Source: Deltaproteobacteria bacterium (GTDB lineage: Bacteria; JAEEML01). From it: a stretch of DNA of 64,000 bases. Of this stretch, positions 3,401 to 4,476 are shown piece by piece; position 1 is the stretch's first letter; the number at the start of each line of letters is the position of its first letter. Under the pieces are notes generated by a model, which searched no databases, was not told the origin of the DNA, and worked only from the letters and a program-made list of their open reading frames with translations. A program made the translations under genes and the position numbers. The stretch covers positions 688 through 64,687 of the forward strand of contig JAEEML010000167.1 of NCBI GenBank assembly GCA_016283195.1, in the 5' to 3' direction.

Positions 3401-4116
3401 AGGCTGTTGTTATCATTCTTAAATGGTTTATCGAGAAGTGTTTCCGGCGAAAAATAGTGATATAGTGCTATGAGGTCGTTTTGATTCTCTGGCCCGTAAC
3501 TATTGTAAATATCCTTTAGATTACAGTAAGTAAAGCTGAGTTGCTCCTTTATGCGTTCTATAAAAGGCGGAGCTATTTTTTTATAAAAATAATCGCTTGT
3601 TTGGTCGGTAGTTCGGCCGCAATTAAAATCTTCAAAGTCTTTCCTGAATTCCTTGTCCTCTTTGATGAATCTTAGAATTTCTGTTGCATCAAAGATAAAC
3701 CATTCTTCCCAGTTAGAAATAATGAGCTGCTTAATGCGATCCTGCTGTTTGTTAAAATACTGCTGGCAAAAATAGAGTAGTATTTCACAGAGAGCTTTTT
3801 TATTAAGCTCTTCTTTGGTGACCATTTCATTGGTGTTGCGAACTGTCTTAAACTCAAATAAAATACGCTGCTTATCATCTTGTGCGATGTACAAATCCAT
3901 GCGTTCTTTATTTAACTGAAAAAGGTGATCTTGGTAGAGAGTTTCAAAGAGTTTTTGTCCCAGGTTTTTTATCTGTTCTTCGTTATCACTTTTCTCGTCA
4001 TATTGATTCCAGACCTGTCTAAATGTCTGTTCAAATTTATCCCATTTTTCTTTTGGAATTGCTTGGTTGCTGAAGGCAATATTGCGCTTTTGCTGGTAGC
4101 TATATTCCTTCATCAC
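442..4116 (-). CDS. Type IIG restriction-modification enzyme: N-terminal PD-(D/E)xK-like nuclease region, gamma-class N6-adenine DNA methyltransferase, C-terminal target-recognition region
   Basis: 1224 aa. SAM-binding motif I DPAVGSGHFL and catalytic motif IV VIGNPPY are present. N-terminal D…EFK nuclease-like signature. The C-terminus resembles Eco57I/MmeI-type TRDs. An SD-like gaggtgg precedes the ATG. The gene is visibly AT-richer than its neighbours. Confidence 0.8.
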   Translation of the reverse strand: MMKEYSYQQKRNIAFSNQAIPKEKWDKFEQTFRQVWNQYDEKSDNEEQIKNLGQKLFETLYQDHLFQLNKERMDLYIAQDDKQRILFEFKTVRNTNEMVTKEELNKKALCEILLYFCQQYFNKQQDRIKQLIISNWEEWFIFDATEILRFIKEDKEFRKDFEDFNCGRTTDQTSDYFYKKIAPPFIERIKEQLSFTYCNLKDIYNSYGPENQNDLIALYHYFSPETLLDKPFKNDNNSLDEDFYAELLYIMGLKQVKDGQKKLIKFNYELENSLWKQALSALDDFEELRDEQKREEVALSLVLTWVNRLLFIKLVEAQQLTYHNHDKNYQFFTSKSVDSFRKLNDLFFKVLGQKENRDAGYENVPYLNSSLFEKSQEELKYHVSIQSICNEDITLYQKSVLRKNNAENVPPQIKLLDYIMAFLDAYNFASEKKEDIASDNKTLINASVMGLIFERINGYKDGSFFTPGFITSYMAKEAIDRAVVSKFNEQYKWKAKDIEELRVRLNRHLDGDGATDLKEALEAANSVFNSLKICDPAVGSGHFLVSVLNRMLYLKSYLGLLCDSAGNFISKRELKIEIDGDELIMLDEKNQQITYRIESDGKPNSTLQRFQETIFKEKLTIIENCLFGVDINPNSVYICRLRLWIELLKNAYYTKESSYKELETLPNIDINIKCGNSLISKYSVEVGNSILQKGNPQKTADIIKDYKAAVKKYKNENNKENKKEVNKQIERLKGEIHQTAQLDLFDEEHNKRVFTDDIYKNSFEWMIEFPELLDNNGKFLGFDVVIGNPPYIKEYANRSAFNGFRELSPYYIGKMDLWYGFACQGIDLTHKNGLLCFIAQNNWTTSAGAKLMRIKVIEDTKIKQLVDFNTYMIFENADIQTMIMLFERNNKEDGYFFDHRVLLADSVKEDMFALLEKRSAPKTKYSNPEIIRGNFQEKLLTFSDNESIFDKIANDKIYLTEDEVAQGIVPNPDVVNSRNIKLLRNSSAEIGEGVFIVDENKFINLDSAEKKYIKPLYEPYQMERYFLNEHNDKCILYITKSNWKDDAPNLKNHLMKYKEIMEQRRENRIGRIEYYHLHWARDEKFFKNGAKILSVRKCIVPTFVYCESATYVMMAVNVIQTSRWNMKFLTGLLNSKLVAFWLKNKGKMQGKNYQVDKEPLLAIPLPKVVPEITEKNIINIVDQILAAKKADPKADTSALEQEIDRLVYALYGLTEEEIATIEGK

Positions 4117-4196
4117 GCCACCTCGCTCGCGCTAGCAGCGCAATTTTTAAGCTCAAATTTTCTGGAATAATTGCTTAAATTTCTTGAAAAAAACTC

Positions 4197-4225
4197 TTGA
4201 CTTACAGAATTTGGCTTTTCATAAT
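4197..4225 (+). promoter_or_regulatory. sigma70-like hexamers TTGACT-17 nt-CATAAT on the plus strand, pointing into the TTGC repeat
   Basis: The -35 and -10 hexamers are read directly with a 17-nt spacer. Transcription from here would run away from the RM gene, through the SSR and into the hairpin array. This is a hexamer match only. Confidence 0.25.
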
Positions 4226-4292
4226 TGCTTGCTTGCTTGCTTGCTTGCTTGCTTGCTTGCTTGCTTGCTTGCTTGCTTGCTTGCTTGCTTGC
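4225..4292. repeat. Tetranucleotide simple-sequence repeat (TTGC)17, which reads (GCAA)17 on the RM coding strand
   Basis: 68 nt of perfect TTGC units, counted directly. It lies 109-176 bp upstream of the RM start codon. Confidence 0.95.
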
Positions 4293-4476
4293 TTGGGGTG
4301 AACAGATTCATTGATTTAGCTCCATCTAACAAAATTAATGTTGCCAGCTAACCCATCGCGGACCAGCCATGCCAAACTGAGCCGGAACCCTAGCAGGTTT
4401 TTTGCCACTTTGGAATTACTTTTTTGTAATAACTAGCTGGTATCACGCCATGTAAAAAAATGCCTTCCAGAGGAGC

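Follow-up and report, generated by a model that had tools for sequence, protein, structure and literature searches.

We analysed a 64,000-nucleotide (nt) stretch of DNA (contig JAEEML010000167.1 of assembly GCA_016283195.1, positions 688 to 64,687; hereafter the window, with position 1 as its first letter), in which a perfect (TTGC)17 tract precedes the gene that encodes a Type IIG restriction-modification (RM) enzyme. We consider it rather likely that a short leader open reading frame (ORF), translationally coupled to the RM gene, is switched by this tract, and the switch probably acts by way of translation and not of a promoter. The components can be read directly from the sequences: the tract, the upstream ORF that contains it, the outcomes of the three reading frames, the overlaps of stop and start codons, and hairpins predicted at the start regions. 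The design is conserved across two repeat units and two Type IIG genes, the second gene being found on a metagenome contig (L078) that carries a homologous leader.

The repeat tract and its leader ORF

Our own scan of repeats counted exactly 17 perfect TTGC units at 4225-4292, and Tandem Repeats Finder reported a period of 4, 17.8 copies and 100% matches at 4225-4295. Both agree with the original prediction, made from the letters of the window, of a perfect 17-unit tetranucleotide microsatellite; the distance given there, 109-176 nt upstream of an RM start at 4116, holds as well. In the CAAG register of the gene strand the tract has 18 units, namely (CAAG)17 and a final CAAT. It is the sole simple-sequence repeat of its class in the window, and its origin by chance is excluded, since the 12-mer TTGCTTGCTTGC occurs in 15 copies, all overlapping inside the tract, while shuffled sequences lead one to expect 0.04. 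Tetranucleotide tracts gain and lose 4-nt units by slipped-strand mispairing, and (TTGC)17 is a long uninterrupted repeat of the kind that characterises contingency loci. Hypermutability of this tract would follow from such general knowledge and from the difference in repeat unit and number between the window and L078, a comparison of tract lengths that is made on the assembled sequences of two loci preceding different genes. A metagenome scan with the tract and its flank as query returned no match, and no contig with the same allele was recovered.

The tract had been described as not lying inside the ORF, which is true of the RM ORF but not of a short upstream ORF on the same strand: an ATG at 4311 (minus strand) stands six codons before the tract, with a GGAG 8 nt upstream of it. 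The repeat is positioned so that a change in unit number would alter expression, as it lies within this leader ORF, the three frames of which have three termination points. As sequenced, with n = 17 units, the frame ends at a TGA 108 nt before the RM ATG. When the number of GCAA units is varied in a model, 15, 18 and 21 units lead into the frame that ends at a TAA, and 13, 16, 19 and 22 units into a read-through frame, the TGA of which overlaps the RM start codon. Relative to the RM ATG, the leader ORF ends at 108 nt, 91 nt or -2 nt (TGATG) in the three frames, and only one of them brings ribosomes to the RM start codon. A comparison of the leader-ORF tail with 1.8 billion representative proteins gave one spurious match only, to a Cys-rich repeat protein.

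A five-codon mini-ORF (ATGGAGCTAAATCAATGA; 4307-4324, minus strand) has a stop that overlaps the leader-ORF ATG. Its own ATG is ACG in L078, so that it is probably without meaning. On the plus strand, an ORF across the tract (4184-4351) was considered and rejected: it is devoid of a Shine-Dalgarno sequence, it starts upstream of the only plus-strand promoter-like site, and in L078 the corresponding frame is not open.

A homologous leader before a second Type IIG gene

L078 was recovered by a metagenome scan with the hairpin element of the flanking repeats (see below) as query, and is 78.5% identical to positions 4179-4678 of the window. The two sequences have in common three 59-nt units and the hairpin, an identical upstream-ORF start (GGAGCTAAATCAATGAATCTGTTCA), and the blocks on either side of the tract (Table 1), with both out-of-frame stops at the same conserved positions. 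The L078 tract is (CAAT)11, and the sequence after the 46-nt block is unrelated to that of the window. As sequenced, the upstream ORF of L078 is in frame over 58 codons (MNLFSP(INQS)n-INYEKQNSVSQEFFSRNQQKSLVHFQPKFVIKFKDFGVMP), and its TGA overlaps the ATG of the gene for a protein of 1058 amino acids (aa) as ATGA. This protein is a different Type IIG enzyme (PADLOC PDLC03610, 1012 bits; Pfam N6_Mtase, MmeI_Mtase, Eco57I and Type_ISP_C). The overlap of stop and start codons that marks translational coupling is consequently found twice, as TGATG in the read-through frame of the window and as ATGA in L078.

Written in a common register, the tract and its borders are CC(CAAG)17(CAAT)1TATG in the window and CC(CAAT)11TATG in L078, from which it follows that the rule for the ON state (units = 2 mod 3) is identical at both loci. 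L078 is in the ON frame, and the window with its 17 GCAA units is one unit away from it. The tract has turned over between the loci, which differ in unit as well as in number (17 CAAG plus 1 CAAT versus 11 CAAT). Only the gene strand is translatable across the L078 tract, because (ATTG)n, as read from the sequence, carries TGA in every frame. After shuffling of the two non-homologous tails, 16.7% and 17.6% of the trials kept a read-through frame without a stop before the start codon; together with the phase requirement (2/3 and 1/3) this gives a joint chance of about 0.007, a post hoc figure. Scans of viral contigs for the leader gave no matches.

The enzyme and the structure of its start region

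The longest form of the RM ORF begins with GTG (442..4116, minus strand, 1224 aa), and the start codon is likely the ATG at 4113, because a GAGGTG lies 5 nt upstream of it. The protein matches the Pfam families DUF7149, DUF7814, Eco57I, N6_Mtase, TaqI_C and MmeI_Mtase, and is classified by PADLOC as REase_MTase_IIG (E 2.7e-231), which confirms the single-chain Type IIG enzyme of the original prediction; the 1224-aa ORF is real. An alignment with five homologues shows conservation of the nuclease residues D73/E87/K89 and of the motifs DPAVGSGHF and NPPY, and the N-terminus is alignable from residue 1, the protein being full length. One polypeptide combines an N6-adenine methyltransferase and a target-recognition domain with a PD-(D/E)XK nuclease at its N-terminus, as defines Type IIG. 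The specificity of the enzyme is not inferable from its closest homologues, since these are only 46-48% identical (they derive from metagenome-assembled genomes of Treponema and Bacteroidia). Upstream of the genes of more distant homologues a repeat was found at none of 52 genome loci, which indicates that the tract belongs to the leader module and not to the enzyme family.

We folded 69 nt around the RM start and used the -35 to +35 regions of all 34 long ORFs in the window as a control. Despite its low G+C content, the RM start region is the most stable of the 34 (-22.7 kcal/mol); the second-ranking region reaches -18.2, and the median is about -11.7. In the predicted fold, GGUGGC of the Shine-Dalgarno sequence is base-paired with GCUACC of codons 5-6, while an outer stem ties the leader to codons 7-12. 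Similarly, the Shine-Dalgarno sequence of the L078 start region (GGAGUGAUG) is predicted to pair with codons 4-6 (-13.6 kcal/mol, z = -2.32). Occlusion of the Shine-Dalgarno sequence is thus predicted at both loci, by differing sequences.

Table 1. Positions of the RM gene, its leader and the flanking elements in the window
Feature	Position	Strand	Description
Type IIG RM gene	442..4113	-	1223 aa from ATG at 4113; intact; Pfam, PADLOC, homologue alignment
Predicted hairpin at RM translation start	4081..4144	-	-22.7 kcal/mol, z = -1.95; predicted fold
Read-through frame	4113..4229	-	SNYEKPNSVSQEFFSRNLSNYSRKFELKNCAASASEVA, then stop; TGA 4115-4113 overlaps RM ATG 4113-4111 as TGATG
Post-tract block, 46 nt	4179..4224	-	98% identical to L078 (one substitution); stops in two frames, third open
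Antisense sigma-70-like site TTGACT-17-CATAAT	4197..4225	+	10/12 matches; -10 element adjoins tract; conserved in L078
Third-frame TAA stop	4202..4204	-	...QAIMKSQIL, then stop; 91 nt before RM ATG; inside conserved post-tract block
Upstream ORF as sequenced, n = 17	4219..4311	-	MNLFTP(SKQA)6L; ATG 4311, TGA 4221-4219; putative OFF state
Tetranucleotide tract	4225..4292	- (gene strand)	(TTGC)17 on plus strand, (GCAA)17 on gene strand
Upstream block, 118 nt	4296..4413	-	About 96% identical to L078; contains upstream-ORF start; sense promoter/5' untranslated region presumed here
GGAG Shine-Dalgarno	4320..4323	-	8 nt upstream of leader-ORF ATG; conserved in L078
Inverted 59-nt unit and hairpin	317..385		Just downstream of RM stop
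Hairpin element and 3.1 tandem 59-nt units	4475..4666		Upstream of leader; same array precedes L078 leader

A proposed translational switch and its alternatives

The proposed switch would work as follows. The mRNA would start somewhere upstream of 4323. Ribosomes would initiate at the ATG at 4311, with its GGAG at a distance of 8 nt, and after six codons enter (GCAA)n. Slipped-strand mispairing would add or remove 4-nt units and shift the frame after the tract. In two frames the conserved stops would release the ribosomes 108 or 91 nt short of the RM start, leaving the RM Shine-Dalgarno sequence locked in the hairpin and the RM gene OFF or low; the untranslated gap of ~90-108 nt may also permit Rho-dependent termination. 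With total units = 2 mod 3 (here 16 or 19 GCAA units) the third frame would be read, in which ribosomes would pass through the hairpin, stop at the overlapping UGA (UGAUG) and start anew at the RM AUG, turning the RM gene ON. If so, the upstream ORF would be translated, RM expression would depend on this translation, and both a consequence for the methylome and phenotypic switching would be expected. The original prediction of a candidate phase-variable RM system is supported in its core, the putatively hypermutable tract, and is strengthened by the leader ORF and L078. Its transcriptional mechanism, through promoter geometry or leader structure, is not upheld: the tract lies within the leader ORF, and no sense-strand sigma-70-like promoter brackets or follows it.

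Several observations weigh against a coupled leader. The z-scores of the hairpins, which are in silico predictions, are only about -2, and the good Shine-Dalgarno sequence of the RM gene (GAGGTG-N5-ATG) makes some uncoupled translation possible. In the window taken by itself, a frame without stops up to the start codon is not unusual (P ~0.08-0.11). The comparison adds one locus, with recent shared ancestry in the conserved blocks, so that only the variable tails are independent. A profile of both upstream ORFs (window and L078) has no database homologues, though this is expected for a leader. Finally, promoter scans revealed no convincing promoter for a sense transcript, and the antisense promoter-like site is equally conserved in L078.

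The tract could be mutable and yet inconsequential, i.e. neutral or a decaying remnant, with the RM gene translated from its own Shine-Dalgarno sequence whatever the frame. We regard this as unlikely. The presence of that Shine-Dalgarno sequence, the frame arrangement of the window taken alone (P ~0.1), and a sequenced state that is out of frame while the RM gene is intact would all be compatible with it, but a perfect uninterrupted tract of 68 nt is unlikely to last unless slippage continues or selection acts, L078 has the same design, in frame, with a different unit and a different gene, and both start regions are unusually structured.

An effect on transcription or on the mRNA, by which tract length would act on the geometry of a promoter, on the spacing to some upstream element or on the stability of the 5' untranslated region and so grade RM transcription, appears distinctly improbable. 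Repeats that act as promoter spacers or close to promoters are familiar from switches of the hifA/B, nadA and uspA1 type. In the window no sense-strand sigma-70-like -35/-10 pair lies around or downstream of the tract and the only good match is on the opposite strand, so the arrangement is not that of a promoter-spacer switch; a consensus scan of 3900-4900 found no sense-strand sigma-70-like promoter, and a relaxed scan of the sense strand only TTTACA-19-TATTAC at 4456-4426, well upstream of the tract. That the scans did not place a sense promoter leaves room for a position effect, and the distance of 109-176 nt to the RM start would suit one, given that modulation at the mRNA level by an upstream tetranucleotide tract is documented for the AGAT repeat of uspA2 (PMC7302503). 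Four conserved features would nevertheless find no explanation in such an effect: the leader ATG and its Shine-Dalgarno sequence, stops that depend on the frame, stop/start overlaps at two genes unrelated to each other, and hairpins that occlude the Shine-Dalgarno sequence. 

Antisense transcription, with the plus-strand TTGACT-17-CATAAT firing into the tract and across the leader start and antisense RNA or interference setting RM expression, is in our estimate very improbable. The site, which the original prediction had pointed out, is indeed present with 10/12 matches and a 17-nt spacer, is conserved in L078 with one change in the spacer, and is accompanied on the plus strand by a weak hairpin followed by a T-run near 4385-4405, as seen in the sequence. 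Taken by itself it is not significant: matches of at least 10/12 occur 20 times on the two strands of the window together, mostly inside genes. Moreover, it lies within the 46-nt block that is conserved anyway, from which its own conservation is not separable; the tract is outside its spacer, so tract length would leave the -35/-10 spacing unchanged; no plus-strand gene follows downstream; and (ATTG)n in L078 is not translatable.

A sigma-54-like TGGCA-N7-TGCT (TGGCAAAAAACCTGCT; 4392-4407, minus strand) in the conserved block before the leader ORF, identical in L078, was rejected as evidence, three such matches being observed where 2.1 are expected. A consensus fold of the conserved upstream block showed no covariation among the two sequences that it comprises.

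Flanking repeats and history of the locus

The RM gene and its leader are bracketed by repeats. Copies of a hairpin (GCCCCTCTCCATTTTTACAAATAGAGAGGG) lie at 140-169, 356-385, 4475-4504 and 5644-5673, and 59-nt units at 4491-4666 and 317-371. The nine core matches of this repeat family all fall within 141-5674, with none in the other 58 kb of the window. Positions 318-385 and 4477-4544 form 68-nt inverted repeats that are 90% complementary and enclose the RM gene together with the leader. The hairpin element also occurs on about 28 contigs of sister metagenome assemblies (prefixes JAEEGL, JAEEGH and JAEEGF), and the hairpin/59-nt family may mark recombination or cassette boundaries. An identity of the 59-nt units with integron attC sites was considered and set aside, as by eye they possess neither a GTTRRRY/RYYYAAC core nor a long imperfect palindrome.

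A downstream flank is likewise common to both loci, L078 3869-3945 corresponding to window 236-312 (93.5%) and L078 4699-4853 to window 145-271. The 107 nt of L078 available upstream of the repeat array do not match the window, and L078 may be an allele of the window locus or a paralogous one. At 229-312 (minus strand) the window holds a relic from another methyltransferase gene, of which the 3' end is left (...LLYQLYALTPEEVATIEGK before the stop). The DNA of this relic is 76% identical to the 3' end of the present RM gene (432-501), and the same relic follows the L078 enzyme gene with 93.5% identity, a pattern which suggests a past replacement of the RM gene at this site.

Downstream of its Type IIG gene L078 also carries a PIN-domain ORF (4047-4633; Pfam PIN, E 5e-12) after a small ORF. 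Judged by sequence, the two resemble a VapBC-type toxin-antitoxin pair; the window has no PIN ORF at the equivalent position.

The host is, from the 78-80% identity of its housekeeping protein MnmA to proteins named Treponema sp., an uncultured Treponema-like spirochaete. An exact match to MnmA was found only on a 1.5-kb contig, and no exact-protein matches were found for the RM protein (with either start), the adjacent 205-aa protein or the CLC channel. Around MnmA the window and the closest Treponema contigs (L054-L056) differ in gene order, and the G+C content of the RM gene is 0.37 compared to ~0.49 in the rest of the window. This low G+C content and the unshared gene order are consistent with a horizontal acquisition of the RM region (442-4476). 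Rfam and tRNA scans of the window were empty.

Beyond the coupled leader of a single gene, the locus may represent a portable, plug-in stochastic switch, a reading that we offer tentatively and hold to be possible rather than likely. The module would comprise the 59-nt/hairpin array, the 118-nt block, the repeat-containing leader ORF and the block of frame-specific stops. Recombination at a repeat-bracketed defence hot-spot would set it before interchangeable genes for Type IIG enzymes or perhaps also for further defence functions; for each gene brought in, a tail in which one leader frame stays open to the gene's own start codon would subsequently evolve, and the repeat unit would turn over (CAAT to CAAG).

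Two other contigs with the hairpin element carry pentanucleotide tracts at contig ends, (ACTGA)16 at L081 5645-5724 and (CTGAA)27 at L087 1-135, which may be two halves of one locus split by the assembler at the repeat. Further long repeat tracts appear to exist in the population. Directly upstream of the RM leader and between two hairpin copies, positions 4725-5342 (minus strand) encode the 205-aa protein, which has an N-terminal signal-peptide-like sequence and no Pfam or NCBIfam match. Short minus-strand ORFs at 5690-6141 and 6522-6689 have translations with terminal motifs such as ...FWSSTEYS...FVRCVRD before the stop; by eye they resemble the Fibrobacter succinogenes major paralogous domain and are apparent gene fragments.

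Relation to described systems

Most knowledge of phase-variable RM systems comes from a few host-adapted pathogens, where the repeats lie inside the enzyme gene. In Type III mod phasevarions, for example, AGCC, AGTC or CAAC tracts occur in the mod genes of Haemophilus, Neisseria and Moraxella. As proposed for the window, tetranucleotide tracts there switch a DNA methyltransferase ON and OFF with a period of three, but unlike the window the repeats are within the mod ORF itself. The closest counterpart by enzyme type is cj0031c of Campylobacter jejuni, a phase-variable Type IIG RM gene with a poly-G tract inside the ORF (PMC4889913). Both concern a single-polypeptide Type IIG enzyme with a simple-sequence repeat as the switch, switching being proposed from sequence in our case and associated with variable methylation and phage restriction in cj0031c. 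The G tract of cj0031c causes a direct frameshift in the RM ORF, whereas here a tetranucleotide tract occupies a separate leader ORF, the RM ORF stays intact and the host is a spirochaete.

The nearest analogue in architecture is lex2A/lex2B, in which the repeat lies in a short 5' ORF before the functional glycosyltransferase gene lex2B. The unit GCAA (= CAAG) is that of Haemophilus influenzae lex2A (PMC6479036 Table 1; PMC2651432 table), and according to literature tables CAAG/GCAA and CAAT are units of the Haemophilus lex2A, oafA and lic genes. While the unit is the same, the downstream gene of lex2 encodes a glycosyltransferase and not an RM enzyme. In H. influenzae biogroup aegyptius F3031, (CAAG)32 is located 58 bp upstream of an EcoRI-like adenine methylase (PMC2651432). 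Here, too, a CAAG unit stands upstream of, and not inside, a DNA methyltransferase gene; unlike the window, this tract comes without a reported leader-ORF analysis, its function and mechanism are uncharacterised, and its host is a gammaproteobacterial pathogen. Similarly, uspA2 of Moraxella catarrhalis has (AGAT)n 132 bp upstream of the ORF (PMC7302503). This tetranucleotide tract resembles ours in length and upstream distance but has a graded effect at the transcript level, and neither a leader ORF nor an overlap of stop and start codons is reported for it.

In classical translational coupling, a UGAUG or AUGA overlap is combined with a start region that is occluded by structure and opened by the upstream ribosome. 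The window shares the stop/start overlap and, by prediction, the hairpin-sequestered Shine-Dalgarno sequence, and differs in that the upstream cistron would be a dispensable leader, the frame of which is randomised by a repeat tract. A full-text literature search for phase variation, translational coupling and repeats, which did not cover the primary papers on lex2A/lex2B, found this arrangement described for no gene.

Compared with known phase-variable RM systems, the evidence in our case points to a leader ORF of modular kind: the enzyme ORF stays intact, the switch is entrusted to a disposable peptide, and the two are connected by the stop/start overlap and the occluded ribosome-binding site. 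Two Type IIG genes that are unrelated to each other have this leader in common in uncultured Treponema. If this holds, tracts regarded as 'intergenic' may sit in unannotated leader ORFs, which would widen the search space for contingency repeats, and the two loci would exemplify the transfer of a switch between defence genes by recombination. Within natural spirochaete populations, mixed methylomes and mixed phage susceptibility would be predicted. Should the module in addition prove portable, it would represent a general route to phase variation by translational coupling in spirochaetes, distinct from the in-ORF and promoter routes of pathogens.

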